IMG/VR virus record: IMGVR_UViG_2609459844_000007 | Span: 1 to 15,367 of that record | Origin: a virus | Taxonomy: Duplodnaviria; Heunggongvirae; Uroviricota; Caudoviricetes | Direction: 5' to 3' (one strand) | Length of the DNA stretch: 15,367 nucleotides | Part shown: in pieces, positions 1-15,367 of the stretch | Layout of the letters: each line of letters begins with the position of its first letter | How positions within the stretch are numbered: the stretch's first letter is position 1 | The notes under the pieces: generated by a model | Database searches by the model: none | What the model was told of the DNA's origin: nothing | The model's input: the letters and a program-made list of their open reading frames with translations, nothing else | Position numbers and translations under genes: made by a program

Positions 1-84
1 ATGGCGGGTTATTTGTCCTGGTTATTCCCCCGTTGTAAAATCTCTCCTAAACTTAACGGTACGGCACCACACTTCGGGGATGAA

Positions 85-276
85 ATGTTCGCGCTGGTAC
101 TTTTTGTTTGCTACCTGGATGGCGGTTGTGAAGATATTGTTGTGGATGTCTACAACACGGAACAGCAGTGTCTTTATTCTATGAGCGATCAACGGATCCG
201 CCATGGCGGTTGTTTTCCGATTGAGGATTTTATAGATGGTTTCTGGCGACCAGCACAGGAGTATGGTGATTTTTAA
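85..276 (+). CDS. yebW: Small conserved protein, 63 aa (MFALVLFVCYLDGG...), matching my recollection of E. coli YebW; the frame is open from position 1 but ATG at 85 gives the 63-aa product
   Basis: ORF track frame 1..276; internal ATG at 85; convergent with and abutting pphA stop; identity from recalled sequence, not searched. Confidence 0.6.
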   Translation: MFALVLFVCYLDGGCEDIVVDVYNTEQQCLYSMSDQRIRHGGCFPIEDFIDGFWRPAQEYGDF

Positions 277-933
277 TTATTGCAATTGCACAAGAGTCAG
301 TTCGCCCCCAAAGACAGCACCGGTATCAATATAATGCAGGTTGCCAATATCCACGCGATGTCGCAACGGTGTATGACCAAACCAGAAATGATCAGCACCT
401 GTAATTCCCTGCCCTTTTTGGCGTTCACCTAATCGCGAGCGGCTCCACAAGACCTGATGCAAATCAACGTCCTTTTGCCATTCATAAACATCATCTGGAT
501 AATCGGCATGAGCAATAACATGTTTGCCGGTACGACTGTGTACTTCAAGAATAAAGGGCAAATGCTGACATTTTTCCAGCGCCGTTTTCGCTTGTTTCTG
601 TTGATTATCTGCCAGCGCAATAAACCAGTCGCCGCCATTCATCAACCACAAAGACATCTGCTGGGATGCCAGCGCATCCATCGCCATCTGTTCATGATTG
701 CCTCTTACCGCACAAACCCAATGTTGTTCCAGTAACTGCAGACAACGTAAACTTTGCGGCCCACGATCGATAACGTCTCCTACTGAGATAAGTAAATCTC
801 GCCACGGATCAAAACGACAATGCCATAATTTGCGGCGCAACTGCTCAAGACAACCGTGTATATCGCCAGAAAGCCAGATATGTCGCCATTGATGACCCGC
901 AATTCTCTGATAAACGGGCGCAGGCTGTTTCAT
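277..933 (-). CDS. pphA: Serine/threonine protein phosphatase 1 (PrpA), calcineurin-like metallophosphatase, 218 aa
   Basis: Translation contains metallophosphatase motifs GDIHG, GDVIDRG, GNHE; sequence matches recalled E. coli PrpA; track ORF 277..936 begins MMKQ, second Met taken as start. Confidence 0.9.
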   Translation of the reverse strand: MKQPAPVYQRIAGHQWRHIWLSGDIHGCLEQLRRKLWHCRFDPWRDLLISVGDVIDRGPQSLRCLQLLEQHWVCAVRGNHEQMAMDALASQQMSLWLMNGGDWFIALADNQQKQAKTALEKCQHLPFILEVHSRTGKHVIAHADYPDDVYEWQKDVDLHQVLWSRSRLGERQKGQGITGADHFWFGHTPLRHRVDIGNLHYIDTGAVFGGELTLVQLQ

Positions 934-1065
934 CAATATTTTCCTCCCGCGCTAAAGATCACATAATCTTAACAAGAATGTTAAAAAACGCTGGACTCAG
1001 ACAGTAGAGTGTGTGTTATGGTTGACTATAAAGTCAGCGAAGGAAATGCTTCTGGCTTTTAACAG

Positions 1066-1098
1066 ATAAAAAGAGACCGAACACGATTCCTGTTTTCG
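1066..1098. repeat. Left prophage-chromosome junction: imperfect direct repeat of the sdsR 3'-end sequence (ataaaaagagaccgaacacgattcctgttttcgtc), about 29/33 identical to the copy at 14764..14795
   Basis: Direct sequence comparison of the two copies; 8-bp identical block agaccgaa (1073..1080) bounded by mismatches is the likely crossover region. Confidence 0.65.
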
Positions 1099-1397
1099 TC
1101 AACAAACAACAAAATCTTTTAGAATTAATGTGTTAAATAAATTTATGCTCATCTTTTAATCCCTAACACATACCATTACATATTAATACATTCAATTAGT
1201 TACCATTTTTTTCGAGTTTTTTAGAGAAATTTTCGGGAATATTTCAGATCAATCCATGCATACACAAGCAATTCCTGTATTGAATAATTCCGTAGCAATT
1301 ATGTAAAATCACCTCCGGCTGATTTTCATTCAAACTCGCGCTATCGAACGTCCATCAGCCAGCCGTGACACGTTCTTGCATACGACGTGCTACGGTT

Positions 1398-1535
1398 TCA
1401 TTTATCTCCGACCGGAAACTTCTTATACAAAGTCGATACGCCAACATCATAGATGATCGCCACCTTCTGGCGAGAAACTCCTGATGCAATTAGTCGTCCA
1501 GCCTGCGCCCATTGCTCCGGCGTGAGAGTAAGACA
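1398..1535 (-). pseudogene. 3' remnant of a Pin/Gin/Hin-family serine DNA invertase gene (C-terminal HTH only, about 45 codons, no start codon, catalytic domain absent)
   Basis: Minus-strand translation ...LTLTPEQWAQAGRLIASGVSRQKVAIIYDVGVSTLYKKFPVGDK* resembles the recalled C-terminal DNA-binding end of PinE-type invertases; in-frame stop immediately upstream. Confidence 0.7.
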
Positions 1536-1610
1536 TTAAACTGTAGAAAAATCTCATTAAACTTAATATAATAATAAGTTACAGAATTATCTTTACTGAA
1601 TAATAGATAT

Positions 1611-2156
1611 ATGAACATTAGTGAACTTAAAAACTGTATACACTATGAAGTAATAGGTTATAAACGCCCTTTCTCCTGGCGAAAAGCAATTGTTCGCGCA
1701 ATAAAACACAGAAGATTACGTTATTTATTTTGGTGGCGCATAGCAAAATATCTTTTTGATAAAGGCGGATACCGGCGAAAGGTTGCAGGAAAAATAGAAC
1801 GCTTCATTCTTGATAAATACAATGTAACCGTTCCCTTAACTGTAAATATTGGTAAAGGGTTCGACATATCTTATCTCAATGGCGTTGTTATCGGTCACAA
1901 AGTTACAATAGGTGAAAATTGTTCAATTAAGCCTGGAGTAACTATTGGACTTCGCGGTGAATTTAATGATATGGATATTGTCATAGGAAATAATGTAACC
2001 ATCGGCTGTAACGCCACCATCCTTGGTGGCAAAGTGCATATAGGGAATAATGTAAAAATAGGAGCTCATGCATTGGTACTGCATGACATTCCTGATGACT
2101 CCACATTCATTACTAAATTTCACTCTGAAATTATTTATAACTCATCTCACACATAA
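1611..2156 (+). CDS. Hexapeptide-repeat (left-handed beta-helix) acyl/acetyltransferase, 181 aa, CysE/LacA/WbbJ/NeuO-like superfamily
   Basis: Visible [LIV]-G-x4 hexapeptide repeats (VIGHKVTIGENCSIKPGVTIG, IVIGNNVTIGCNATILGGKVHIGNNVKIGAHALV); markedly AT-rich relative to neighbours; convergent with tfa. Confidence 0.8.
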   Translation: MNISELKNCIHYEVIGYKRPFSWRKAIVRAIKHRRLRYLFWWRIAKYLFDKGGYRRKVAGKIERFILDKYNVTVPLTVNIGKGFDISYLNGVVIGHKVTIGENCSIKPGVTIGLRGEFNDMDIVIGNNVTIGCNATILGGKVHIGNNVKIGAHALVLHDIPDDSTFITKFHSEIIYNSSHT

Positions 2157-2166
2157 TTCCGTTTAA

Positions 2167-2739
2167 TCACAGCTCTGGCCATACGATATCCGGGGCTGTA
2201 TTTATATCAATCCGACTCACTAATACCCGGTATTTTTTCCAGGAAGATAGCATCGAGACTTCCTCATCAGTTGCCATTTCAAAATTAACAGCATCCTGCA
2301 GAATTGTTATGTTATCAGTCGCTTCCTGGATTAATCTTGCCTTTTTCTCTTCCGCCTCCCGGATCCGGAACAGTTTTTCTGCTTCTGCATCTTTCACCCA
2401 AGCTGTGCCGTTCCACTTCTGAAACTCCCCATCCGGCGACAACCAGGTGACATTTTTCGGTAATGGGCCAAGTTCAGAAATAAATAACGCGTCGCCGGAA
2501 GCCACGTCATAGACGGTTTTACCCCGATGGTCTTCAATGAGATGCCACGATACCTCATCACTGTTGAAAACAGCCACAAAGCCAGCCGGAATATCTGGCG
2601 GTGCAATATCGGTACTGTTTGCTGGCAGACCTGTATGAGGCGGAATATATGCGTCACCGTCACCAATAAATTCATTAGTTCCGGTCAGCAGATTATAAAT
2701 TTTGATGGTTCGTGATTGTTCACTCATTCTGAATGCCAT
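2167..2739 (-). CDS. Tail fibre assembly protein (Tfa family, P2 gpG-like), 190 aa
   Basis: C-terminal region ([18 protein letters not shown]...[25 protein letters not shown]) matches the recalled conserved Tfa C-terminus; start overlaps tail fibre stop. Confidence 0.85.
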
Positions 2740-3854
2740 TATGCAAGCCTCACAATATAGTTAAATGCGATGTTTTTGACGGTGTTTTCCGCGTTACCAG
2801 CAGCGTTAACGGTGATGGTGTGTCCATGTGAGCCAATTGCAACGGAGTGCGTATGTGCACCAATACCGACAGTATGTGTATGCGCCCCAGCACTTGCTGC
2901 AGTACCTGATACTGAGTGGGTATGCGCGCCAGCAGAATTCGTTGCACCTAAGTGAGTTTGAGCAGAGTTCGACGAAGCTACTCTACCGGAGCTAACGTTA
3001 GCATTATCCCCCTGAGATATCGGATGCGTATGTGCACCTGCTGAAGCTGCTGTTCCGCTAACGCTATGGGTATGCGCACCAGTGTTATTCGTAGATTTAG
3101 TTCCATAATCAAACGATGATGTGTTTTTTGTCCCTAAATCTGTATTTGAAGCACTGGCGCTGTGGGTGTGCGATTTAATGCCGTCCTGTTCCTGGCTAAG
3201 AACATCACGTCCACTTGCAGGCTTACCTTTGATTGTCCAGCCACGCATATCAGGGATCACGCCTGACGGATAAGCGGCTGCAAGTTTCGGGTATGCAGAC
3301 TTGTCAAAAGTCTGTCCCTGCATCAGAGCATAACCAGATGGAACTGTATCTGATGGCCACGGGATCGGGGCACCTACAGGAAAGGTCGAATTATTTTCCA
3401 AACCAAGATATTTAAGGACATCAGCAACAGAGCTTTTTGCCAAAATATCTCGCCCAACCTGTGTCAGGTCAGCCAAATTAGCGGTATCTTGATTGGTAAA
3501 ATACGGTAATTTGTTTTCGGATGCTGAAAGATTAGCAAGTGCGGTAAGTATGGCATTAATTCTCTGATAGTTCTTATCTAATGCAGACGACATTTTTGCG
3601 ATAAAGCCTGCCTGATCGCCATCGTCCTGTACATCCAGTCCACTTTCATTTGCTGTATATTGTGCCATTGCAGATGCAATAAAGCTGGCCTGCCGAATAA
3701 CCTTATTGACTTGCGCACTGGATGCTTTCCCTGCTGTAAATCCGGATAAAAGCGCAGGCAACGCTTCCCATTCCTCCTGCGGCATAACATTGGCATTTTT
3801 ACCCGTTGCAAACGCTTTAAAGTCATTTTTCGCCATCAGAGTAATACTCCCCAT
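2739..3854 (-). CDS. Phage tail fibre protein (P2 gpH-like N-terminal region, collar-type C-terminal domain with GAHTHS repeats), 371 aa
   Basis: Segment [37 protein letters not shown] resembles recalled P2 gpH; repeated [19 protein letters not shown] motifs; position upstream of tfa. Confidence 0.8.
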
Positions 3855-4516
3855 GCTCCTATATCAAAACCACTGATGAATTCGTTATCCATATCAAAAC
3901 CAAAAAATTTTGAGCTTTCCGATGGGGTTTCCACCGAAGGTGTTTCAATGCCACCCGCCCATACCCCGGCGGCTTTTACTGTGAGATACCCCTGTTTAAT
4001 TGCCGCAATTAACTCACGCGATACATCTGAAATATCAGTATCAGGAAAGACCCAGACCGATATCGTCATGTCCTGGTTATCGACTATCTGCATTCGCAGC
4101 CCGGCTCCTGCTGTTACAGCGTCAAGAATTGCCGGAAGCGAATCATTCCGTCCGTCCCAGTTATTAATCGCAATCTTCGCTTTAAGAATGACACGATAGG
4201 TTTCATCGCTGAGGTACATGTATCCGGAATCAGGATCGTATGGTCCCTGCCATACCCCCTGATCATATCCAAGCCCGTCGGTATCCCAGCTGAAATAGAC
4301 ACCTGAGATAGGCTGGCTGACAATACGGCTACGTCCGATCCACAATCCCAGAATGTCAAGTTGCACACCAACCGCAGAGTCAATATCAAATGCAGTAATC
4401 AGCCCTCTGGTGGCAGCCGCAACATCAATAAGCGGCCGGGTCATCAGATCAACATGTGCAAGAAATTTAGGTTTGGTGGCGTGATAGTTTGTGATTAGTT
4501 CGGTGTATTTGCCCAT
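3836..4516 (-). CDS. Putative phage baseplate/tail protein (P2 gpI / e14 YmfQ position), 226 aa
   Basis: Long ORF between baseplate-J fragment and tail fibre in J-I-H-G order; overlapping start/stop coupling with both neighbours; family assignment by position only. Confidence 0.5.
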
Positions 4517-5094
4517 GACTCCACCGTTATAACGATATTTTCCGGGGTACAGGACGCAGATTCGTTATATCTGATATCAATGTTTGATGACGACAAAGCC
4601 CCCGGGGATTTCCCAATCGTCAGTTCCTGAATATCGTAATAGCGTGCATTCCCGCCACTCGCCACGCCAAGATTCGCCGGTGAGTAAATGCGACTTAAAA
4701 GGACTGAATCACCAATCGTCAGACTATTGATATAGTCGGAAATAGCCTGCTGGATCTGCTGCCCTATCTGTGAGGTATAACCCGTAAAAACTTTTAATTT
4801 AATCCGGGCATAAACAGGCACATCACTGGAACGCGAGAATTTGATTACATGGGGATTGCCGTATTTATCCGGAACCGTAACGGATGTTGTACCGTGAGTG
4901 GCTGTCCCCTGGCCTTTATTCCCTCTGATAGCCTGAGCAATATCCGTCACATCACCGCCATCCACAATTACAGCAACAGAGTGTGGCGGTAACCCGTTAC
5001 CGTCCTCCGAACCAGTATCGTTTTCATAGAGTTTGTGGCGGGTTACACCGGTAACATTAGAAACAGCACCATCCAGTGCTTCAAATGGGGTTAA
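4495..5094 (-). pseudogene. Baseplate J-like protein, C-terminal fragment (5' end deleted)
   Basis: ORF has no plausible native start (track begins at a TTG inside the junction); reading frame runs directly out of the truncated dnaC-like gene; position upstream of gpI-like gene. Confidence 0.6.
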
Positions 5095-5497
5095 CCACAA
5101 TCACTGTCTGACCGTCTTTCAGCAGGCGATTCCCGATAGCTGCCGCTAAGTGATTCTTCCCGGTACCAGGTTTTCCGCTGAACGCAAAATTTGTACACCC
5201 GGTCATCAGTTCATCGGCGATGGATTTCGCCTGGCTTAACGCGTGTCGCTGGCCGTCGTTCTGCACCTGGTAATTCGCAAACGAGCATTTACGGTGCAAC
5301 GGCTGGATGCCTGAGCGATTCAGAATTTTTTCCACCCGCAACTGGCGATTCAGGCGGTTGATCTCCTCGCTACGTTTCTGGCCTTCAGCAAGTTGCCACT
5401 CGCGCCACTCCGCTACCGTTCTGAATGGTGCGGTTACATGTGGCGGAGTCAGTCGGCGGATGCGTTCCAGAACGCCGCCTGTCGCAATATTTTTCAT
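5081..5497 (-). pseudogene. DnaC-like phage replication protein (helicase loader, YdaV-like), N-terminal 135 aa only; reading frame leaves DnaC homology after ...GQTVIVV and stops
   Basis: Strong resemblance to recalled E. coli DnaC N-terminal half including Walker A GKPGTGKNHLAAAI; DnaC homology ends at about 5093 then NPI-stop. Confidence 0.8.
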
Positions 5498-5503
5498 GGT
5501 CCG

Positions 5504-6298
5504 TTACCCCCTGAAGCCTGGCGGGATCGCACTGTCCGGCAACGAGACGGTGTTAACCTGTCGGAGCAACGTCTCAGGCCGAACACCTTTCGGCGCGAAC
5601 AGGCCCTGGTATTCATTGGCGATACTGTGTCGAATCACCTGCTCGGGTGTAAAACCCTGCTGGCGGAATTTTTCCAGCTCCCGTATCGCCCCGTTAGCGC
5701 CCTGCTCCGTTCGAATCGGTTTTCGCAATGCCTGCCTGAACCGGACCCACTCATGCCAGAGTGTTTCCGGCAACCAGTCAGGCAGCTCAATAGCCTCCGG
5801 CTCAAATTTTTTAGACGCTCGTTTTTGGCGAGGGGGATTTAGGGGGAGATCAGTATTTATATCTTCCTCTTCCTCTTCCTCTTCCTCTGGTAACGCTTTT
5901 TGATCCATTTGTGTAACGCTGCCAGCGTTACCTTTTCGTTTCAGTTCGCGTATTTTTGTAACTCGCTCGTTTGTAACCGCCCGTTTTTTAGAGCTTTTTC
6001 CGTTATGACGTTCAAAGTTAGGTAGAGAAAGCCCAACGTCATTTTCGACCAGCCATCCAACCTGAATTAACGCATCAGCAAAACCAGCCATAAAAGTGAT
6101 GCGATCTATTGCACTTTTTGTAACGCCGCGAGCGTTACAATCTGCATTACCGTCTATCATTTGTTGATCCGCCCATGCCCAGAAGCGAATAACCTTCCCT
6201 AATGCGGCATCTGGATCAATATTCAGAATCTCAGCAAGCCTGAATATTTCCGGCTTATCCGGCGTAATAACCTCGAGCTTTATCCAGTTTGAAGCCAT
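5504..6298 (-). CDS. Phage replication initiation protein (YdaU-like), 264 aa, with internal poly-Glu tract
   Basis: Position between CII-like gene and dnaC-like gene as in Rac (ydaT-ydaU-ydaV); family assignment by position and recollection. Confidence 0.65.
   Translation of the reverse strand: MASNWIKLEVITPDKPEIFRLAEILNIDPDAALGKVIRFWAWADQQMIDGNADCNARGVTKSAIDRITFMAGFADALIQVGWLVENDVGLSLPNFERHNGKSSKKRAVTNERVTKIRELKRKGNAGSVTQMDQKALPEEEEEEEEDINTDLPLNPPRQKRASKKFEPEAIELPDWLPETLWHEWVRFRQALRKPIRTEQGANGAIRELEKFRQQGFTPEQVIRHSIANEYQGLFAPKGVRPETLLRQVNTVSLPDSAIPPGFRG
5863..5888. repeat. Simple sequence repeat (cttcct)x4, encoding the EEEEEEEE tract of the replication protein on the minus strand
   Basis: Direct reading of sequence. 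Confidence 0.9.
5913..5931. promoter_or_regulatory. 19-bp palindrome gtaacgc-tgcca-gcgttac (copy 1 of 3), candidate protein-binding site/iteron
   Basis: Perfect 7-bp inverted arms with 5-bp spacer; same arms recur at 6120 and 6312. Confidence 0.45.
6120..6138. promoter_or_regulatory. 19-bp palindrome gtaacgc-cgcga-gcgttac (copy 2 of 3)
   Basis: Direct reading; 207 bp from copy 1. Confidence 0.45.
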
Positions 6299-6311
6299 TT
6301 GTTTTCACCTT

Positions 6312-6330
6312 GTAACGCTCGCAGCGTTAC
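6312..6330. promoter_or_regulatory. 19-bp palindrome gtaacgc-tcgca-gcgttac (copy 3 of 3), just upstream of the replication gene start
   Basis: Direct reading; 192 bp from copy 2. Confidence 0.45.
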
Positions 6331-6375
6331 ATTTAACTGATACCGAACAAAACAATCCGGCACGATTAATTTCAA

Positions 6376-6798
6376 TCAATGCACTACGACAGAATCGCCG
6401 GGCGACCCACCACCGCTGAAATGTGCTTTCCGGTAAACGGCCTGGACTGCATCATCATGCGCATCAATTGCCGTACTCAACGCTTCCTGCGCCGCCAGTA
6501 ATGCACGGCGTTCCAGGGTATCGAAGATGCAGAGTCGGTGACGCAGCTCGCGCGGAAGAATTGCCAGAACCGCAGGGATCAGTTTCTGAATTTTTTCCCT
6601 TTGCGCTTTCGTTTCACCTTTCAACCAACGGTGATAGATATTCTGCTGATTGTTCCAGTCCTTGCCTGGTACAAGGGGCAATTCGCCGCCCCCCTGGCGC
6701 AGATATTCTTCAGTAATTGCGTTAGCGACCCACGCCTGCCCTTTTTCGGCTGCCAGGGCTAACAACACTGATTCGATGTGCTCATGCCTGATTTTCAT
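6376..6798 (-). CDS. ydaT: YdaT-like (CII-like) prophage regulatory protein, 140 aa
   Basis: Sequence resembles recalled Rac YdaT; overlaps upstream Cro-like gene by 4 nt; position downstream of cro. Confidence 0.7.
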   Translation of the reverse strand: MKIRHEHIESVLLALAAEKGQAWVANAITEEYLRQGGGELPLVPGKDWNNQQNIYHRWLKGETKAQREKIQKLIPAVLAILPRELRHRLCIFDTLERRALLAAQEALSTAIDAHDDAVQAVYRKAHFSGGGSPGDSVVVH

Positions 6799-7037
6799 GA
6801 ATCAACCGCTCCTATGCTGTTTTCGCTATGCTTACCGTCTGGGGGGAATACATCGTCAAGTCCACAATGAGCGCCAAGCCGATTAAGGGTAGAAACAATT
6901 TTTCTGCACTCCTCTAGTCCAGGGGTACGAAAATTTGCTTCGTAATTTGCCAGTCGGCTTTGTATCCACCCTAACTGAACAGCAAGTTGTCTTTGAGACA
7001 GCCCAAGCTGTTTTCGATATGTTGAAATTTTGTTCAT
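6795..7037 (-). CDS. Cro-like HTH DNA-binding protein (YdaS-like), 80 aa
   Basis: HTH LGLSQRQLAVQLGWIQSRLANYEA; divergent from repressor gene; GGAGG Shine-Dalgarno 6 nt upstream of ATG. Confidence 0.75.
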   Translation of the reverse strand: MNKISTYRKQLGLSQRQLAVQLGWIQSRLANYEANFRTPGLEECRKIVSTLNRLGAHCGLDDVFPPDGKHSENSIGAVDS

Positions 7038-7061
7038 TGAAAACCTCCGATGACAATTTTA

Positions 7062-7122
7062 AACACACCTTGTGTTATATGGTCAAGCTGTTTTGTGTTT
7101 TATGTAAATCACGATTCGTGAT
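7062..7122. promoter_or_regulatory. Right operator region: inverted repeats aacac-N5-gtgtt (7062..7076), degenerate copy (7085..7099), atcac-N5-gtgat (7108..7122) at 23-bp spacing, between divergent cro-like and repressor genes
   Basis: Direct reading; candidate -35 TTGACC on minus strand (complement of 7081..7086) for the cro-like gene. Confidence 0.6.
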
Positions 7123-7133
7123 ACAAGGATGCA

Positions 7134-7553
7134 ATGGAAAAAGAAAACGAAAAAATTGCCGCCAGTAGGCTCAATGACAAAATTGCAATGCGTCTTAAAG
7201 AGCGCAGGCAGAAGCTTGGTTTATCTCAAGGAAAACTTGCTGAAATCTGCGGATGGACGCAATCGCGTATAGGTAACTATGAGGCGGGCAGCAGAAATGT
7301 TGGAGTGCATGACGCTGTCGTATTGGGAAAGGCACTTGGCATATCTCCTCCTGAGCTCCTCTTTGGAGAACAGGAATCTTCTGAATTGTGGTTAAATGAA
7401 TCCCAACGAAAACTTCTTGAGTTGTTTAACCAGCTACCGGGCTCAGAACAACAACGAATGATTGAGCTATTTGAAGTCCGGCTAAAAGAAATCGATGAGT
7501 ATGTAGAAAAATATTTGAGAGGCAGGCTTAAAGATAATCCCCCACCGGAGTAA
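7134..7553 (+). CDS. CI-like prophage repressor, XRE-family HTH, 139 aa, no LexA/S24-like peptidase domain
   Basis: HTH LGLSQGKLAEICGWTQSRIGNYEA nearly identical in the recognition region to the Cro-like protein; divergent arrangement across operators. Confidence 0.8.
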   Translation: MEKENEKIAASRLNDKIAMRLKERRQKLGLSQGKLAEICGWTQSRIGNYEAGSRNVGVHDAVVLGKALGISPPELLFGEQESSELWLNESQRKLLELFNQLPGSEQQRMIELFEVRLKEIDEYVEKYLRGRLKDNPPPE

Positions 7554-7583
7554 TGATCTTGCTATCACAGTAATATGCCAATC

Positions 7584-7608
7584 AGCCCGCTATCAGCGGG
7601 CTTTTTTG
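7584..7608 (+). terminator. Rho-independent terminator after repressor gene (agcccgct-atc-agcgggct + TTTTTTG)
   Basis: Perfect 8-bp stem, 3-nt loop, U-tract. Confidence 0.75.
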
Positions 7609-7637
7609 TACCATCATCATATGACACTCACCGAAAA

Positions 7638-7679
7638 AACACATTTCGTGTTGACATAAGAAAACGCATTGTGTTTAAT
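7638..7679 (+). promoter_or_regulatory. PL-like promoter (TTGACA 7651..7656, 17-bp spacer, TTTAAT 7674..7679) with overlapping operator aacac-N5-gtgtt (7638..7652) and a second degenerate operator (7661..7675)
   Basis: Direct reading; same operator motif and 23-bp phasing as in the right operator region. Confidence 0.6.
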
Positions 7680-7853
7680 AAGCATATCCAAACAACGCCC
7701 CATCAGAGAACGGCAGGACAATACCTCGAGTTATCCAGTCACTGAACAGGGCTAAGTAGCCAGCCTGAGGCATACGAACATGACGGCAGTTGTTGATTGA
7801 TACAAAGCGCAGTAGATAAAACGTTCCGCCACCCGGCGTTAAGGGGAAAAAAG

Positions 7854-8072
7854 ATGGTTGGTGAAGATCTGGTTGTTATTAACGGTCAATTGTGCAGCAA
7901 AGATGTGGCAGCCATGCTTATTAGCAAGGTTCTTCCAACTGTGCTGGAGGTCATTGCAGAAAAAGTAAAGGCTGGTCGTCCAGACAAGGAAGTTGAAGAG
8001 GCGGCAAAAACAGTTGTTCATGCCGCTACAGAAGCAATTATTTTGAAGAGCCTAGTTTCGCCCAAGCCTTAA
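7854..8072 (+). CDS. Hypothetical small protein, 72 aa (MVGEDLVVINGQ...), first ORF downstream of PL-like promoter
   Basis: Strong SD AAGGGG 7 nt upstream of ATG at 7854; T7 tract 8085..8091 downstream; no recognisable family. Confidence 0.5.
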   Translation: MVGEDLVVINGQLCSKDVAAMLISKVLPTVLEVIAEKVKAGRPDKEVEEAAKTVVHAATEAIILKSLVSPKP

Positions 8073-8232
8073 GTGAATCGGCGCTTTTTTTAGCATCACG
8101 TTCATTGAGTAGTGACAAAAACTCATTCTCAGCATTCTCGATTTCCGAGAAAAATTCTTGATGAGTTGTTTCTCGCTGCGATCTGATGCTGAAAACTAAA
8201 GCAAGTAGCCAGGCTTTGTCTTTATTATCCAT
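8038..8232 (-). CDS. Hypothetical small protein, 64 aa (MDNKDKAWLLALVFSIRSQRE...), convergent with and overlapping the 3' end of the 72-aa ORF
   Basis: SD AAGG 7 nt upstream of ATG; candidate sigma70 promoter on minus strand (-10 TATACT = complement of 8267..8272, -35 TTTACC); no family recognised. Confidence 0.35.
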   Translation of the reverse strand: MDNKDKAWLLALVFSIRSQRETTHQEFFSEIENAENEFLSLLNERDAKKSADSLKAWAKLGSSK

Positions 8233-8418
8233 AGGAATACCTTATTACTGGTTGTGTGAGAACTCCAGTATACCACCGAGCCTGAAGTGGTAAAAAGACA
8301 GGCGCACAACACGAAGGCGCATTTCCGGTATTCATAAAGAGTCGGACTTGTCTGTTAAATTTAAATGGTGGGAGTGCGCCTCCGGTTGTAAATAACGACA
8401 TTGCTATGTGTAGTCTTT

Positions 8419-8462
8419 GGCGGCATCAGTTCTACTCCGTGGCTGCCCTGCCGCCCCTTTTT
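8419..8462 (+). terminator. Terminator-like GC stem (ggcggca ... tgccgcc) followed by TTTTT, inside noncoding region upstream of kilR
   Basis: Direct reading; large loop, so strength uncertain. Confidence 0.35.
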
Positions 8463-8627
8463 AAAGTGAATTTTGTGATGCGGTGAATGCGGCTAAGCGC
8501 ACGCGGCACAGTTAAAAGCATCAGTGTTATGGGTGGATTATCCGGCGTTAATTGTTAACTGGTTAACGTCACCTGGAGGCACCAGGCACCGCATCGACAA
8601 AATTCATTTGTAAAAATGGTGATAATT

Positions 8628-8849
8628 ATGATTGCTCATCACTTCGGAACTGATGAAATACCACGTCAGTGTGTGACCCCTGGCGATTATGTTCTTCATG
8701 AAGGTCGGACATATATCGCCTCGGCAAACAATATTAAAAAGCGAAAACTTTATATTCGAAGCCTGACAACAAAAACATGCATTTCTGACTGCATGATTAA
8801 AGTCTTCCTCGGTCGTGATGGTTTACCTGTAAAGGCGGAGTCATGGTAA
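8628..8849 (+). CDS. kilR: KilR-like cell-division inhibitor (Rac kil), 73 aa
   Basis: Sequence [35 protein letters not shown]... matches recalled Rac KilR; gene order kilR-ydaE-racC-recE; track ORF starts 12 nt upstream at 8616 without an SD. Confidence 0.8.
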
Positions 8850-9019
8850 TGACTAAGAAAATAAAATGTGCTTATCACCTTTGCAATAAAGAAATTGAAG
8901 AAAGCAAAATCATTACAAGACCACTTCATTTCATGCGTGAAGTTATACCAACGACGGAAATGAAAAAATATTGTAGTGAAATCTGTGCCGAAAAAGACCA
9001 GATGGCACACGAACTTTAA
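8849..9019 (+). CDS. ydaE: YdaE-like small Cys-rich metal-binding protein, 56 aa (not in ORF track because under 60 aa)
   Basis: Manual translation [56 protein letters not shown]; start overlaps kilR stop (TAATG); position as in Rac. Confidence 0.7.
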   Translation: MTKKIKCAYHLCNKEIEESKIITRPLHFMREVIPTTEMKKYCSEICAEKDQMAHEL

Positions 9020-9093
9020 TTAACTGACTATCCGAAACTGAATTTATGCCAGCAATGGCAGGGATTCGCTCAACCTTAATTAAGGAGAAAAAC

Positions 9094-9369
9094 ATGATTA
9101 CCAGTTATGAAGCCACTGTTGTTACTACTGATGACATTGTTCACGAAGTCAGCCTGGAAGGAAAGCGTATTGGCTACGTGATTAAAACAGAAAATAAAGA
9201 AACCCCTTTCACTGTGGTTGATATCGACGGTCCATCAGGCAACGTTAAAACGCTTAACGAAGGCGTCAAAAAAATGTGCCTGGTGCATATCGGAAAGAAT
9301 CTGCCCGCAGAAAAAAAAGCCGAATTTCTGGCAACTCTGATTGCAATGAAATTAAAAGGTGAAATCTGA
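9094..9369 (+). CDS. racC: RacC-like protein, 91 aa
   Basis: AAGGAG SD 6 nt upstream of ATG at 9094; sequence matches recalled Rac RacC; track ORF starts further upstream at 9046. Confidence 0.8.
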   Translation: MITSYEATVVTTDDIVHEVSLEGKRIGYVIKTENKETPFTVVDIDGPSGNVKTLNEGVKKMCLVHIGKNLPAEKKAEFLATLIAMKLKGEI

Positions 9370-9374
9370 AAGAA

Positions 9375-9399
9375 ATAGCCTGCGTATGGCGCAGGCTAT
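9375..9399 (+). other. Perfect 10-bp inverted repeat hairpin (atagcctgcg-tatgg-cgcaggctat) without U-tract, between racC and recE
   Basis: Direct reading. Confidence 0.6.
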
Positions 9400-9469
9400 G
9401 AACAGTGTGTATCCGGCAAGATTATTCACTGAACAAACGAATTTTAATCTGAGTTGAGGTTAAAAAACA

Positions 9470-12400
9470 ATGAGCACCGATAAACAAGTTTACCCACTGT
9501 ATTACGAAGCAAAAAATGACAAAGTAAGAAAACGTCTCGGTATTAAAGGCGGTTTTTACTGGGCTGAAGCGAAAAAATTATCCATTGCCATCTCCCGTGG
9601 TGCTGTTGCGATTGACGATGCTGGCTACGATGAAGATGACTTCAAAAAACCTGTTCGCGTCAATTTGCCCGTTGTTGATGACCTCCCGCCAGAAGGCGTA
9701 TTTGATACGGAATTCTGCAACCGTTACGAAAAAGGCGGGGAAGATGGCATCACAATGGTATTTATCGCGCCCTCACCCTCTGCGCAGGGCAAACCAGCCG
9801 GCACTGACAACACCAATGTTAATGGCGAAGACATGACGGAGATTGAGGAGAATATGCTACTCCCGATTTCTGGCCAGGAGCTGCCCATTCGCTGGCTTGC
9901 TCAACACGGCAGCGAAAAACCGGTAACGCACGTTTCACGCGACGAACTCCAGGCATTACACATTGCACGGGCTGAGGAACTACCAGCTGTTACTGCCCTA
10001 GCTGTTTCCCACAAAACCAGCCTGCTCGATCCGCTGGAAATTCGCGATCTCCACAAACTGGTGCGTGATACTGACAGAGTTTTCCCTAATCCAGGCAATT
10101 CAAGCCTGGGACTGATGACTGCTTTTTTCGAAGCATACATGAACGCAGACTACACCGATCGCGGTCTGCTGACAAAAGAGTGGATGAAAGGAAATCGTGT
10201 TTCACGCATCACGCGCACGGCTTCCGGCGCTAATGCTGGCGGCGGGAACCTCACCGATCGCGGCGAAGGTTTCGTTCACGATCTGACGTCACTGGCGCGC
10301 GACGTAGCCACTGGCGTACTGGCTCGTTCAATGGACGTGGACATTTATAACCTTCATCCGGCACACGCTAAACGTGTCGAGGAAATTATCGCTGAAAATA
10401 AACCGCCCTTTTCTGTTTTCCGCGACAAATTCATCACCATGCCTGGCGGGCTGGATTATTCCCGCGCCATCGTGGTTGCCTCCGTAAAAGAAGCACCAAT
10501 TGGGATCGAGGTTATCCCCGCACACGTCACTGAATATCTGAACAAAGTACTGACTGAAACTGATCATGCCAACCCTGATCCGGAAATCGTGGATATTGCC
10601 TGCGGTCGCTCCTCTGCCCCGATGCCGCAGCGTGTAACAGAAGAAGAAAAACAGGATGATGAAGAAAAACCGCAACCATCTTGCGCAATGGCAGATGAAC
10701 AGGCAACGGCTGAAACAGTGGAACCGGATGCAACTGAACATCATCAGGACACGCAGCCGCTGGATGCTCAGTCACAGGTAAATTCTGTTGATGCGAAATA
10801 TCAGAAACTGCGGGCAGAACTCCATGAAGCCCGGAAAAACATTCCGCCCAAAAATCCTGTCGATGCAGACAAATTACTGGCTGCCTCTCGCGGAGAATTT
10901 GTTGAAGGGATTAGCGACCCGAATGATCCGAAATGGGTTAAGGGGATCCAGACCCGCGATTCTGTGTACCAGAATCAGCCAGAAACGGAACAGAACGACC
11001 AGAAAGCGGAACAGAACAGCCCAAATACGCAACAAAACGAGCCAGAAACGAAACAGCCTGAGCCAGTAGTGCAACAACTGGAAACGGAGAAAGTTTGCAC
11101 CGCCTGCGGTCAGGCTGGCGGCGGCAACTGTCCTGACTGCGGCGCGGTGATGGGCGACGCAACGTATCAGAAAACCTTTAATGAAGAAAATCAGAATGAA
11201 TATCAGGAAAAAGGTCTGGAGGAAATGGAAGGTGCTGAACATCCGCACAAGGAGAACGCTGGCAGCAATCCGCATTGCGATTGCAGTGATGAAGCTGGTG
11301 AAGCGACAGCACCTGTAGTAACTGAAATCATGTGGCCGTCATATTTCGAGCCTGGCCGCTATGAAAACCTCCCGAACGAGGTTTATCACTCCGCCAACGG
11401 AATAAGCAGCACAATGCTGAAGGATGCCCGCATCAGCCTGATGTATTACCACGGACGGCACATTGCCGGAACTATTCCGGGCGAGGAAAGTGATGCATTG
11501 CTGCGTGGGCGAATTATTCACAGCTATGTTCTGGAAACGGATAAATTCGCTGATGAGTATGCCATTCCGGTACCGGTTCCTGAATATGTGGTTACTACTT
11601 CTAACGAACTGATCGCCATCATTAAAAAACACAATGCCAGTCTGCCAGCACCGATGACACCAGAGCAGATGAAAGAGTGGATCGAAAGCTACAACAGCAC
11701 TCTTATACAGCCACTGTCGGTAAGTGCCGGGGCCGAAGAAACAGGCATCCTTTACGGTTCGCTTCCGGAGGAATTCCGGCGTATTCCTGAGGGGGAAAAA
11801 CACACAGCATCAGCAATGAAAGCCTGTATTAAAGAATACAACGCAAACCTCCCTCCTCTGTTGAAAACCAGTGGATCACGGGAGCAACTTCTGGAGCAAA
11901 TTGAAACTGTAGATCCAGAACTGGCAAAAAAAGAACGTGCTAAATCTTTGCCTTACAACATCAGTGGCACAAAAGAGCAATTAACCGAAATCGCACGGAA
12001 AATTCGCCCGGAACTGGTGACACTGGAAGACTGGCAAAAACGCCAGCAAGAAGAAAACGCCGGGAAAACGTTTATCAGTCCGGATATGTATGAACAGGCA
12101 AAAAATATTCACGCTGCACTGCAAAACAATACCGATGCAGCAAGGCTACTCAACCACCCGGATCGCAAATCTGAAATCAGCTATTTCGGGTTTGATGAAG
12201 AAACCGGGCTGGAAATCAGGGTCCGTCCTGATATCGAAATCCGGCTGCCATACGAAAGCATTTGCGCCGACGTGAAGTCAGTCAGCCTCGGTTATGTGCG
12301 ACAGGAACGACTGAAAGATCGCCTGCACCGTGAAATTATTGAGCGTGATTATCACCTCAGCGCAGCAATGTATTGCGATGTGGCAAACCTGGACAAATTT

Positions 12401-12766
12401 TTCTGGATCTTCGTCAACAAAGATGCTGGCTATCACTGGGTGGCCGTCGTGGAAGCCTCGCAGGAACTCCTGGAACTTGGTCGACAGGAATATCGCCGGA
12501 CGCTACGACAGATAAATGAAGCTCTGGAGACAAACAACTGGCCAGCACCGATTACCGAAAGTTATACCGACGAATTAAACGACTTTGATCTTCGTCGTCT
12601 TGAGAAGATGATAAATAACCTGCCTTCATCAGGTGATCCAGAAGCAGAACAAAAATTTATTGCTCTGGAAAATACGCTGAATGCTGCACGACCACATCTG
12701 GGAGAATTATATGAGGCGTATAAAACGACACTGACAGATATGAAACCAGAATATATCGGCTCCTGA
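9470..12766 (+). CDS. recE: RecE-family exonuclease VIII homologue, 1098 aa, with divergent C-terminal PD-(D/E)XK nuclease domain carrying a ~150-aa insertion and a C-terminal extension
   Basis: N-terminal/central ~600 aa closely resemble recalled K-12 RecE (e.g. [43 protein letters not shown]); Cys4 cluster [16 protein letters not shown]; PD...DVK motif at 12227..12276. Confidence 0.85.
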
Positions 12767-12774
12767 TATTTACT

Positions 12775-12798
12775 ATGGCGGTGTAGCCTCACCGCCAT
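12775..12798 (+). other. Perfect 9-bp inverted repeat hairpin (atggcggtg-tagcct-caccgccat) between recE and ralR
   Basis: Direct reading. Confidence 0.6.
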
Positions 12799-12829
12799 AA
12801 CAAAACTTTATTTTATGAGAGAAAAGACA

Positions 12830-13024
12830 ATGCGGTATGAAAAAGTCAAACCATGTCCGTTTTGTGGTTGTCCATCAGTAACGGTGAAAGCCATTTCAGG
12901 ATATTACCGCGCAAAGTGTAACGGATGCGAATCCCGAACTGGCTATAGTGGAAGTGAAAAAGAAGCACTCGAAAGATGGAATAAACGAACTACTGGAAAT
13001 AATAATGGAGGTGTTCATGTATAA
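12830..13024 (+). CDS. ralR: RalR/Lar-like restriction alleviation protein, 64 aa
   Basis: MRYEKVKPCPFCGCPSVTVKAISGYYRAKCNGCESRTGY... matches recalled Rac RalR (Lar); Cys4 motif; track ORF begins at upstream ATG 12815. Confidence 0.8.
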   Translation: MRYEKVKPCPFCGCPSVTVKAISGYYRAKCNGCESRTGYSGSEKEALERWNKRTTGNNNGGVHV

Positions 13025-13205
13025 AATTACTGCCACTATTGAAAAGGAAGGTGGCACTCCTACTAACTGGACAAGGTACTCAAAAACAAAATTAACCAAA
13101 TCAGAATGCGAAAAAATGCTCTCAGGTAAAAAAGAAGCAGGCGTTTCCAGAGAGCAGAAAGTAAAGCTGATAAATTTTAATTGCGAGAAGCTTCTGTCCT
13201 CGTGA
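13017..13205 (+). CDS. ydaC: YdaC-like small protein, 62 aa
   Basis: GGAGG SD 5 nt upstream of ATG 13017; overlaps ralR stop; resembles recalled Rac YdaC; track ORF starts at 12948 inside ralR. Confidence 0.65.
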   Translation: MYKITATIEKEGGTPTNWTRYSKTKLTKSECEKMLSGKKEAGVSREQKVKLINFNCEKLLSS

Positions 13206-13260
13206 GTTGCATTATATACAAATTAGAACTTCATAGCTGATTATTAAAAATCAACCACCC

Positions 13261-13289
13261 CCGCCAGTATTCTGTATATTTACTGGCGG
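13261..13289 (+). other. 9-bp inverted repeat hairpin (ccgccagta ... tactggcgg, 11-nt loop) between ydaC and xis
   Basis: Direct reading. Confidence 0.55.
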
Positions 13290-13305
13290 TCATATCGTAA
13301 GAGGT

Positions 13306-13592
13306 ATGGCAATGAATCTTGTGACACTAAAAACGTGGGGAAACTCAGATATCCAGATAACCCACCATCAATATCAACGCTGAGACGATGGGCAAGGAAT
13401 GGAAACATTTATCCTGCACCTGAACTACACGGGAGGAGTTACAGGGTGGTTCCGGAGGCTTTCTATATCAACCCAAATAAGGTTGATACCGATATAACAC
13501 ACCATCAGCCTAATGGGCGACAAGGGAGAGACAGTCCGTTACTGGAGAAGTTAAAACATGCAGCGGAAAAAATACGATCCCAATTTGCCTAA
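13306..13592 (+). pseudogene. Excisionase (lambda Xis-like winged helix) with apparent -1 frameshift in a G4 run (13337..13340); downstream frame opens with GTG at 13335
   Basis: Frame 1 from ATG 13306 encodes MAMNLVTLKTWG then stops; frame 3 continues KLRYPDNPPSISTLRRWARNGNIYP...; together they align with the recalled lambda Xis N-terminus (LTLQEWNARQRRPRSLETVRRWVRE). Confidence 0.55.
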
Positions 13593-14634
13593 AAACTTAA
13601 CATATCGAAGGAGGGACAAAGCATATTACTGGCGCAACCCTATGACGAAAGAAGAATTTACACTAGGTAAAATTTCAAGAAGAGATGCAGTAGCGCAGGC
13701 AATTGAAGCAAATCATTATATATACAAAAACTACTCTCCTGCTGCCTTAATTGAAAAGCTTAAAGGGTTCGACTCATTTACTATGGCAGACTGGATTGAA
13801 CGTTACAAAACGATTCTTATAAGGAGAAAAGTGTCCAGAAATACTTATAAAATTCGGGTAAATCAACTGGAGACAATAAAAGAAAAATTGGGAGGGATTT
13901 TACTGACAGAAATAACCACTCGCCATATTGCCGAGTTTCTTGATTTGTGGATTGAAGGAGGGAAAAACACGATGGCAGGATCAATGCGTTCTGTGTTATC
14001 TGATATGTTCCGCGAGGCCATTGTTGAAGGACGTATATCTCAAAATCCAGTAACGCCAACAAGAGCACCGAAAATAGTAGTTACAAGAGAACGGCTGAAA
14101 CTAAAGACATACAACTGCATCAGGGAGGCAGCAGATCAACTTCCGACATGGTTCCCATTAGCTATGGACTTAGCCCTTGTAACAGGACAACGTCGCGAAG
14201 ACATAACGAATATGCGGTTCAGTGAGATTTATGATGATCGTCTCCACATCAGGCAAATTAAGACAGGAATGATGATTGCTATCCCCCTGTCACTCAGCCT
14301 TCCTGTCGCTGGTTTACGACTTGGTGCAGTAGTTGAACAGTGCCGCATGGTAAGTAGGGGGGATTATCTAATCAGTGCCGGGATTAGAAAAAACAGCCCT
14401 GACGGTAGCATTCACCCGGACGGCCTGACAAAGAAATTTGTCGCAGCCAGAAAATTAACAGGTATCCAGTTCAGTGAAAACCCACCAACTTTTCACGAGA
14501 TCAGAAGCCTGGCTGGACGATTGTACAAAGAAACATGTGGAGAAGAATTTGCTCAGCGTCTACTTGGCCACACATCGGAGAAGACAACAAAAATGTATCT
14601 TGATGAGAGAGAAAAAACGTACTTACTGCTCTGA
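13558..14634 (+). CDS. int: Tyrosine integrase, lambda Int family, 358 aa
   Basis: N-terminus aligns with recalled lambda Int (PPNLYIRNNGYYCYRDPRTGKEFGLG versus [27 protein letters not shown]); catalytic-region motifs [21 protein letters not shown]-terminal Tyr in TTKMYLDE. Confidence 0.9.
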
Positions 14635-14710
14635 TTTTAACGTAAATGGATTGTTAAATGTATTTTGGTTGTGATATAACCAAAAAGACCGGAATACAGA
14701 AATTCGAGTA

Positions 14711-14730
14711 AATTTCGGGGAATTTCGGGG
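14711..14730. repeat. Tandem direct repeat aatttcgggg x2 in the int-proximal att arm; candidate arm-type integrase binding sites
   Basis: Direct reading; related motif aaattttcgggaat at 1227..1240 in the opposite arm. Confidence 0.4.
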
Positions 14731-14763
14731 AGACGTTTGCAACTAATTGATTTTAAATACAAT

Positions 14764-14795
14764 TAAAAAAAGACCGAATACGATTCCTGTATTCG
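14764..14795. repeat. Right prophage-chromosome junction: att-core copy that is also the terminator hairpin of sdsR
   Basis: Imperfect direct repeat of 1066..1098; perfect hairpin gaccgaatac-gattcct-gtattcggtc. Confidence 0.65.
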
Positions 14796-14868
14796 GTCCA
14801 GGGAAATGGCTCTTGGGAGAGAGCCGTGCGCTAAAAGTTGGCATTAATGCAGGCTTAGTTGCCTTGCC
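14764..14868 (-). ncRNA. sdsR: SdsR (RyeB) RpoS-dependent small RNA, about 105 nt
   Basis: Minus-strand sequence GGCAAGGCAACUAAGCCUGCAUUAAUGCC...GGACCGAAUACAGGAAUCGUAUUCGGUC(U)n matches recalled SdsR; sigmaS-type -10 CTATTCT (complement of 14874..14880) upstream; terminator hairpin plus U-tract. Confidence 0.85.
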
Positions 14869-14955
14869 CTTTAAGAATAGATGACGACGCCAGGTTTTCC
14901 AGTTTGCGTGCAAAATGGTCAATAAAAAGCGTGGTGGTCATCAGCTGAAATGTTA

Positions 14956-14996
14956 AAAACCGCCCGTTCTGGTGAAAGAACTGAGGCGGTTTTTTT
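14956..14996. terminator. Bidirectional rho-independent terminator (accgcccgttct ... agaactgaggcggt flanked by A5 and T7) serving ryeA (+) and yebY (-)
   Basis: Direct reading of stem and flanking U-tracts on both strands. Confidence 0.65.
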
Positions 14997-15025
14997 ATTG
15001 GAAATCAAAAGGCTATTTTAGGTAA

Positions 15026-15367
15026 TTAACAGAGTTTTTCAGCTCGTTCTATAAACGGTGCCAGACTCATTTTTTCGCCGGGATTGTTAGGATCATCAAT
15101 CTGAATCACCGAAATGGGTTGGGCTTTAGTCTTCCCACTGGCAACTTCCTTTTGTGCGATATCGTTTAAAGGATACTGCACGAGGGTACTTGGGTTAATG
15201 ACATACAAAGCATTACCCGGTCTGCAAGTCAGCATCACCTCTTCGCGATTAAACGCCCATTTGTCTTTACCCACTTCAAAACGACTGACGGTAATCACCT
15301 GCGGTGCAGCCAGCGCCGCTGCAGAACTGGTGAGTAACAGAAACGTCAGAATACTTTTTTTCATCAT
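15026..15367 (-). CDS. yebY: YebY, DUF2511-family secreted protein with signal peptide, 113 aa
   Basis: [23 protein letters not shown] signal peptide; matches recalled E. coli YebY; start codon is the last triplet of the window. Confidence 0.85.

Follow-up and report, generated by a model that had tools for sequence, protein, structure and literature searches.

In lambda and the Stx phages, the origin of replication is located in the middle of gene O and is composed of iterons bound by the O protein, each of which is an inverted repeat, and an AT-rich tract (PMC7466680). Two iterons and the tract suffice for unwinding and additional iterons lengthen the protein (PMC7466680). Here, we describe inverted repeats (dyads) located in and just upstream of the replication-initiator gene of a Rac-type Escherichia coli prophage. 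The region analyzed (the window) is a stretch of 15,367 bp, positions 1 to 15,367 of IMG/VR record IMGVR_UViG_2609459844_000007. The dyads are probably the cognate sites of the initiator encoded by the same gene and, with associated half-sites and a polypurine tract, are predicted to constitute a lambda-style origin within its coding sequence (CDS).

Two other replication systems and Rac itself are relevant for comparison. In iteron plasmids of the pSC101, F, P1, and R6K type, Rep proteins read one half-site both as inverted repeats near the start of the gene and as direct repeats at the origin, with a half-site period of about 22 bp. In Bacillus phage SPP1, the "replisome organizer" G38P binds repeats within its own gene (oriL) and a second, distant set of sites. 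The Rac prophage is reported to have an active origin, oriJ (PMC3945230).

Conserved dyads in the initiator gene

A search of the window for the pattern GTAACGC-N5-GCGTTAC, allowing up to two mismatches, identified exactly three matches (table 1). The tolerance added none and the motif is found nowhere else in the window. Across 200 dinucleotide-preserving shuffles, the mean number of matches was 0.04 and none of the shuffles reached three. The length of each dyad, 19 bp (7 + 5 + 7), is within the ~18-19 bp of dyad symmetry per repeat of lambda-type origins. Distances between starts of dyads are 207 and 192 bp, and according to a repeat finder the arms are longer than first noted, 9 + 9 nucleotides (nt) with spacers of 1, 5, and 3 nt. 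The two dyads within the gene, sites 1 and 2, share one frame (xGT AAC GCx xxx xGC GTT ACA). The third, the upstream dyad, is noncoding and falls within the 77 bp that separate the ydaT stop (6376) from the start of the initiator gene. A previous interpretation made solely from the letters of the window (the sequence-only reading) had reported three perfect palindromes with 7-bp arms and 5-bp spacers in and just upstream of the replication gene, as well as half-sites between 5890 and 5981; all three palindromes were recovered where it had placed them and the half-sites are present. In the lineage of the window, site 1 additionally has a 12-nt (four-codon) insertion that left a degenerate half-site.

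Sites 1 and 2 are conserved across divergent homologs. When the N-terminal 138 amino acids (aa) of the initiator were used as a query, homologs were found in 59 phage records (down to 33% identity), ~590 viral contigs, and 65 genome loci from several phyla. In a scan of 56 divergent homologous genes for the same pattern with two or fewer mismatches, a dyad was present at nt ~149 (site 1) in 52 and at nt ~347-385 (site 2) in 50. These positions are kept at 41-54% protein identity and across a range in genomic GC content of 0.43 to 0.68, at which divergences synonymous sites are expected to be saturated. Hosts in which the dyads are kept include Klebsiella, Xanthomonas, Pseudomonas, Ralstonia, Achromobacter, Verrucomicrobia, Planctomycetes, and a metagenome-assembled genome of Thermoanaerobaculia. 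A positional matrix built across phyla has ~2 bits at GTAACG and CGTTA and low information in the spacer. Among the exceptions, a pseudogene (L114) keeps site 2 alone and two loci (L141 and L146) are without a recognizable pair.

Codon usage, reading frame, and variation among close relatives separate constraint on DNA from constraint on protein. In site 1, Gly is encoded by GGT and Val by GTT in 50 of 52 genes each, versus 22% and 27%, respectively, of the corresponding codons elsewhere in the same genes; Asn is encoded by AAC in all 52 genes versus 69% elsewhere. Site 2 is translated in either of two frames (42 sites in one and 11 in the other), and the resulting peptides, such as GNAASVT, SNAANVS, VTPQALE, and VTLAALP, are unrelated. 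In an alignment of 59 distinct close relatives, 5 of 42 columns in the arms are variable, compared with 10 of 15 in the spacers, 95 of 421 in the rest of the CDS, and 13 of 83 in other intergenic sequence. This pattern of fixed arms and variable spacers includes the noncoding upstream dyad. Together, these patterns indicate that selection on the dyads is at the level of DNA and not protein. The sequence-only reading had proposed that the palindromes be searched for in homologous prophages, independent of coding constraints, and had named their loss where the protein is conserved as a result that would refute its proposal; the opposite was found.

The centers of the dyads (5920-5924, 6127-6131, and 6319-6323) are hypervariable. 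They vary in a larger share of columns than neutral-looking neighbors do, and the rest of the coding sequence varies in 23%. Hairpins might be extruded here, with loops that are mutational hot spots.

Site 2 is surrounded by an array of half-sites. In nearly all homologs, it is the center of an array in which GTAACG-N6 is present one to four times, followed by two to three occurrences of CGTTAC-N6. Of 106 pairs of successive half-sites with the same orientation, 87 have a distance of 11-12 nt. The array of the window (site 2 and half-sites at 5890-5978) spans codons ~107-136, which encode part of a disordered linker, and placement in the linker region is also found in 50 of 56 homologs. On one side of site 2, the window has two imperfect half-sites, and other lineages have one to four periodic half-sites at the equivalent position. 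On the other side, the terminal half-site, GCGTTACC in gene sense, is retained more widely than any other single half-site in the family.

A run of purines follows the array. CGTTACC precedes it in nearly all of 54 loci and the run begins 2-3 nt after the last half-site. Its length over these loci has a median of 20 nt versus a same-gene background with a median of 5 and a maximum of 13. The tract is retained while the encoded peptide differs, being EEKRREE in most lineages and EEEEEEEE in the window. Its GC content is ~48% in the window and ~35% in most other lineages, and the region has a GC content of 0.38-0.45 with a strong AT skew, or strand asymmetry.

The sequence-only reading had suggested DNA looping on the basis of a regular spacing of about 200 bp. 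Across homologs, site 1 and site 2 are separated by 198-231 bp. Pooled spacings look helically phased (R = 0.66), but this is an effect of two related groups, and when each distinct spacing is counted once, phasing disappears (R = 0.24, p ~ 0.5). Looping is not supported on those grounds. Spacing instead reflects the architecture of the protein because one site is in a loop of the N-terminal domain and the other is in the linker between domains.

Lineages that lack GTAACGC have another dyad, and the same variant is present at both sites of a genome (table 1). What changes among the variants is the central dinucleotide, with GT..CGC constant in all of them. Dyads of the epsilon15 type and of the GTAACG type are found in the same host genera; therefore, the factor that reads the sites appears to travel with the phage gene rather than being a host protein. 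The N-terminal domain is the sole component common to all dyad loci, whereas C-terminal domains and neighboring genes differ. The comparison indicates that the dyads co-vary with the lineage of the initiator.

In the epsilon15 clade (L011, nt 66-84 and 345-363; L149-L156), the two copies of GTCCGC-N7-GCGGAC are read in one frame, as A-S-A-x-x-A-D. The first of them is at nt 66, versus nt 149 in the main clade, and the distal site therefore moved within the gene during evolution.

Table 1. Features of the window and variant dyads in homologous initiator genes. Positions are those of the window unless given as gene nt
Feature	Position	Strand	Sequence	Description
Site 1 dyad	6120-6138		GTAACGC-CGCGA-GCGTTAC	Pattern search; codons 54-60 (CNARGVT), in the part of the initiator gene that encodes the N-terminal domain
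Site 2 dyad	5913-5931		GTAACGC-TGCCA-GCGTTAC	Pattern search; codons 123-129 (GNAGSVT), in the linker-coding part; center of the half-site array
Upstream dyad	6312-6330		GTAACGC-TCGCA-GCGTTAC	Pattern search; noncoding spacer between ydaT and the initiator gene, abutting the Shine-Dalgarno sequence
Degenerate extra left half-site	6144-6150	-	GTAATGC	12 nt before site 1 in gene sense
Imperfect half-sites	5958-5978 (5958-5964 and 5972-5978)		GTAACTC and GTAACCG	14 nt apart, on the side of site 2 opposite the terminal half-site
Terminal half-site	5890-5896		GTAACGC; gene sense GCGTTACC	Encodes Ala-Leu-Pro; directly before the polypurine tract
Polypurine tract	5862-5888	-	(GAGGAA)n in gene sense	27 nt; encodes Glu8; candidate unwinding or single-stranded DNA-binding region
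Replication-initiator gene	5504-6298	-		264 aa; open reading frame and translation, PHROG and PDB matches
ydaV, truncated	5081-5497	-		DnaC/IstB-like helicase loader; presumed partner of the initiator
ydaT	6376-6798	-		
YdaT box	6788-6805	-	TTGATT-CATGAA-AATCAG in gene sense	Over the ydaT start codon; one mismatch to TTGATT-N6-AATCAA
Cro-like helix-turn-helix gene	6795-7037	-		
Repressor gene	7134-7553	+		Divergent
Variant dyad, Planctomycetales L116	Gene nt 140, 329		GTTGCGC-N5-GCGCAAC	
Variant dyad, L144	Gene nt 149, 360		GTCACG-N7-CGTGAC	
Variant dyad, Caballeronia L148	Both sites		GTCACGC-N5-GCGTGAC	
Variant dyad, Vibrio phage 1.211.A	Gene nt 151, 358		GTCAC...GTGAC	
Variant dyad, epsilon15 and eight enterobacterial prophages (nine loci)	Gene nt 66, ~345-354		GTCCGC-N7-GCGGAC	

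A predicted origin and its initiator

The product of the gene has an N-terminal domain (aa ~1-97), a disordered linker of basic and acidic residues (~98-165), and a domain like the C-terminus of DnaT (~171-264). It matches PHROG 2509, annotated as "replication initiation protein" (E 1.9e-90), and its C-terminus matches the DnaT C-domain (PDB 2ru8; E 9e-5). An "O-like" PHROG match is confined to aa 99-238 and NCBIfam has nothing beyond a sub-threshold match to the DnaT tail. Searches of Pfam with the initiator and eight divergent N-terminal domains yielded no meaningful family, including no Phage_rep_O, and no DUF1376 for the initiator. Fold searches with the full-length AlphaFold model had no significant match, but the disordered linker and second domain probably weakened them; structural evidence for a winged-helix DNA binder in the N-terminal domain is no more than suggestive. 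In the model, site 1 encodes the sole low-confidence loop (predicted local distance difference test score of 58) of an otherwise confident N-terminal domain and site 2 is in the disordered linker. The gene is followed by a DnaC/IstB-like gene, and PHROG families of replication initiation proteins and a DnaT-like C-terminal domain complete the context of the module.

Comparative evidence from conservation, fixation of synonymous codons, concerted variants, and anatomy of the array strongly supports the interpretation of the region as an origin bound by its initiator; an origin was one of the two possibilities raised by the sequence-only reading. We infer that the N-terminal domain binds the dyads and that the region fires as an origin. 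In the proposed mechanism, dimers of the N-terminal domain would bind the 19-bp dyads, in which half-sites (GTAACG) have centers 12 bp apart, and further subunits of the initiator would occupy the half-sites around site 2 with their period of 11-12 bp. The distal dyad, ~200 bp away, would join the same nucleoprotein complex, as would, in the E. coli lineage, a third dyad located ~190 bp further upstream. The adjacent polypurine tract would be destabilized and the DnaT-like C-terminal domain would engage single-stranded DNA and bring in DnaB via YdaV, the DnaC-like loader. The upstream dyad is between ydaT and the ribosome-binding site of the initiator gene and therefore may also give the initiator a means of limiting read-through into the gene that encodes it.

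The arrangement has what looks to be the anatomy of a lambda-type origin. As in lambda, the putative origin is in the interdomain region of the initiator gene and has dyad-symmetric repeats of ~19 bp (PMC7466680). After the repeats comes a strand-asymmetric tract that, like the one in lambda, may melt easily (PMC7466680). Likewise, extra repeats add residues to the protein and the gene for the helicase loader comes next (PMC7466680). The two systems differ in other respects. The DNA-binding part of the initiator has no sequence relationship to that of lambda O (no match to Phage_rep_O in Pfam) and its C-terminus is DnaT-like. In place of the four tandem iterons of lambda, there is an isolated dyad in the CDS of the DNA-binding domain and, ~200 bp away, an inverted array of half-sites with a period of 11-12 bp; a closely spaced tandem of at least four iterons is absent, as full dyads are 192-207 bp apart and half-sites alone are close (11-12 nt). 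The flanking tract is a purine run and not just AT-rich sequence. Iterons of lambdoid phages are not the same in close relatives, whereas the half-site described here is conserved across phyla. The putative origin is therefore best described as like the lambda type in placement and predicted working while not being, by sequence, a member of the lambda O family.

Similarity to iteron plasmids is in the use of one half-site in two arrangements, inverted and directly repeated. Unlike in those plasmids, the sites are within the CDS, half-sites recur every 11-12 bp, no promoter is predicted over the upstream dyad, and no homology is shown. In comparison to G38P and oriL of SPP1, the protein family and type of repeat are different.

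The prophage of the window and Rac of strain K-12 have the same gene slot, racR-ydaS-ydaT-ydaU-ydaV. An alignment with K-12 Rac and two other strains delimited a swapped cassette at ~5735-6390 of the window. Genes ydaV and ydaT and the last ~85 codons of the initiator gene are ~90-95% identical in this alignment, but the N-terminal two-thirds of the gene, all repeats, and the upstream junction are from a different cassette that cannot be aligned with K-12 ydaU. The label "ydaU-like" given by the sequence-only reading therefore fits the position and last ~85 codons of the gene and not its N-terminal part. The ydaU gene of K-12 has its own internal repeat, TTGAACAYCTG, in five copies at the equivalent position of the linker. 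In a K-12-type Rac (L001), TTGAACAYCTG repeats are at 2004-2075, 2223-2234, and 2308-2319 and some of them form inverted pairs (TGTTCAAACA / TGTTTGAACA). These repeats are a candidate for the sequence-level location of oriJ.

One short island of identity is present between the otherwise unalignable cassettes of the window and K-12. At 5832-5846, CCCCC-TAAAT-CCCCC in gene sense encodes PLNPP. A C5-6 N2-5 C5-6 motif is present again at gene nt 423-453 in 7 of 72 loci, including those of a Klebsiella phage, Pseudomonas phage PAN70, Pseudohongiella, and Ralstonia. The sequence could be a module junction, a proline motif, or a part of the origin.

Several points weigh against an origin of this kind. 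The iterons of lambda are in tandem, whereas ~200 bp separate site 1 from the array, a layout without tested precedent in the family, and the tract flanking the array is purine-rich (~48% GC in the window) and not clearly AT-rich. Because sites 1 and 2 are in the gene, their linkage to alleles of the N-terminal domain in mosaic prophages is partly automatic, and because the compared sequences are phylogenetically related, counts are not of independent events. Neither sequence-based nor topic-based searches of the literature turned up a description of these dyads. The prophage is also a deletion remnant that is probably defective in replication, and since ydaV is truncated at 5092, the element in this window is probably inactive, though its dyads are intact.

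Homology to an intact Rac-type relative stops at 5092, and ydaV is cut to 138 aa (248 aa when intact). The truncated gene is joined directly to tail genes, which encode a DUF2612 protein (3836-4516), a tail collar protein (2739-3854), and a tail-fiber assembly protein (2167-2739). At 9470-12766 is an apparently full-length open reading frame of 1,098 aa whose counterpart in a near-identical relative is annotated as a partial RecE-family exonuclease pseudogene.

Alternative roles of the dyads

Among alternatives to an origin, we give the most weight to control of the initiator-loader operon, though it is unlikely. The dyads would be autoregulatory operators or roadblocks, bound by the initiator or another phage protein, and the origin would be elsewhere. 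For plasmid Rep proteins, inverted repeats are operators and the iterons of the origin are direct repeats, and the upstream dyad is between ydaT and the Shine-Dalgarno sequence, where a bound protein would hinder read-through. This dyad is present in all close relatives from E. coli and Shigella, with conserved arms and variable spacers. However, none of the more distant homologs scanned has it upstream of the gene; it is therefore a lineage-specific addition, and promoter prediction found no sigma-70-like promoter in the 77-bp spacer. The sites that are family-wide are in the CDS, at +149 and ~+358, and not at a promoter, and periodic half-sites with a polypurine tract are the anatomy of an origin and not of an operator. 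The two roles could coexist, such that the upstream dyad might both contribute a third initiator site to the origin complex and act as an autoregulatory roadblock against read-through from ydaT.

It is improbable that the dyads function as hairpins of RNA or single-stranded DNA, whether in stability or processing of mRNA, as an antisense terminator, or in assembly of a primosome. Each copy is predicted to fold as a single-stranded DNA hairpin of 8-9 bp (-7.6 to -9.4 kcal/mol; z about -4.4), the spacers that would form the loops are hypervariable, and the C-terminal domain resembles the single-stranded DNA-binding domain of DnaT. But pairing does not account for arms whose sequence is near-invariant across phyla (~2 bits per position), nor for the two copies in a genome always sharing an arm sequence and changing together. 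Mismatched variants are not wobble-compatible, the single half-sites found every 11-12 nt in one orientation are left unexplained, and Rfam had no match. The copy at 5913-5931, followed by CTTTTCGTTT, scores as terminator-like on the plus strand. Termination was rejected, as a T-rich tail is present at one copy alone and on the antisense strand, and the number of predicted terminators is not above that of shuffles.

Other functions in cis, such as hot spots of gene conversion or recombination that homogenize the copies, or a site for packaging or partition, are quite improbable. Duplication or conversion is compatible with sites 1 and 2 often encoding the same heptapeptide in the same frame (GNAxSVT, or ASAxxAD in the epsilon15 clade), and the boundaries of the cassette are mosaic junctions. 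Conversion alone, however, would not fix arms across phyla while spacers drift. Partition genes are not adjacent, and packaging sites (pac and cos) are usually located within or close to terminase genes.

The possibility that the dyads are operators, raised by the sequence-only reading for the adjacent CII-like YdaT protein, is very remote for YdaT and for immunity repressors alike. Footprinting has placed YdaT, both that of Rac and that of CP-933P, on a site, (A/T)TGATT-N6-AATCAA, that overlaps the ydaT start codon (PMC11879457, PMC9986795). The motif differs from the dyads and is present apart from them in the window, over the ydaT start codon; this box is predicted to be the actual YdaT operator. 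A weaker match to the box, with two mismatches, is at 6362-6379 and spans the ydaT stop and the start of the spacer, but 1.7 such matches are expected per window and it is not significant alone. The dyads are close to ydaT and a YdaT tetramer could bridge two sites (PMC11879457). Yet in the phage collection, YdaT homologs are found solely in records of Escherichia, Klebsiella, Stenotrophomonas, Pectobacterium, and Actinobacillus. None was detected in its Xanthomonas, Pseudomonas, Ralstonia, Vibrio, or Salmonella records, though dyads are kept there. Dyads as YdaT operators were rejected because the published motif differs and most phages that keep the dyads are without ydaT. Repressors fare no better: the same cassette is found beside different repressor alleles and the repressor-cro intergenic region of the window has no GTAACGC-like site.

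Lastly, a by-product of coding or chance has next to no likelihood, as site 1 encodes a conserved motif (G-N-A-x-x-V-T/S) but the shuffles, synonymous positions fixed against local codon preference, the frame independence of site 2, and a noncoding copy rule it out.

Implications for replication of phages and prophages

Members of the initiator family occur across many phyla, both in prophages and in phages, among them epsilon15-like, CP2-like, and TL-2011b-like ones. The cassette is present in ~690 of 5,426 complete E. coli genomes (~13%), including O157:H7 strains, and its gene is annotated as encoding a "hypothetical protein." The dyads are a signal that is kept across several bacterial phyla and apparently was never described before. 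They also represent a clear natural case of a regulatory DNA code that is overprinted on coding sequence, to the extent that synonymous codons are fixed.

We tentatively raise the possibility that these elements belong to a very widespread and hitherto unrecognized class of phage origins paired with initiators. In such a class, the origin would be bipartite, with a dyad in the sequence of the DNA-binding domain and an array of half-sites in that of the linker bridged into a loop of ~200 bp. GTAACG would be near-unchanged from Enterobacteria to Verrucomicrobia and Planctomycetes, and the variants of its central dinucleotide (AA, CA, TG, and CC) would be a readable recognition code.

For the elements that carry them, the dyads provide a testable, sequence-level prediction of where replication starts and of the target of an uncharacterized N-terminal domain. 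Two matching dyads ~200 bp apart, with periodic half-sites and a polypurine tract, may serve as a signature for annotating origins, and the concerted variants of the dyad are ready-made material for swapping specificity.

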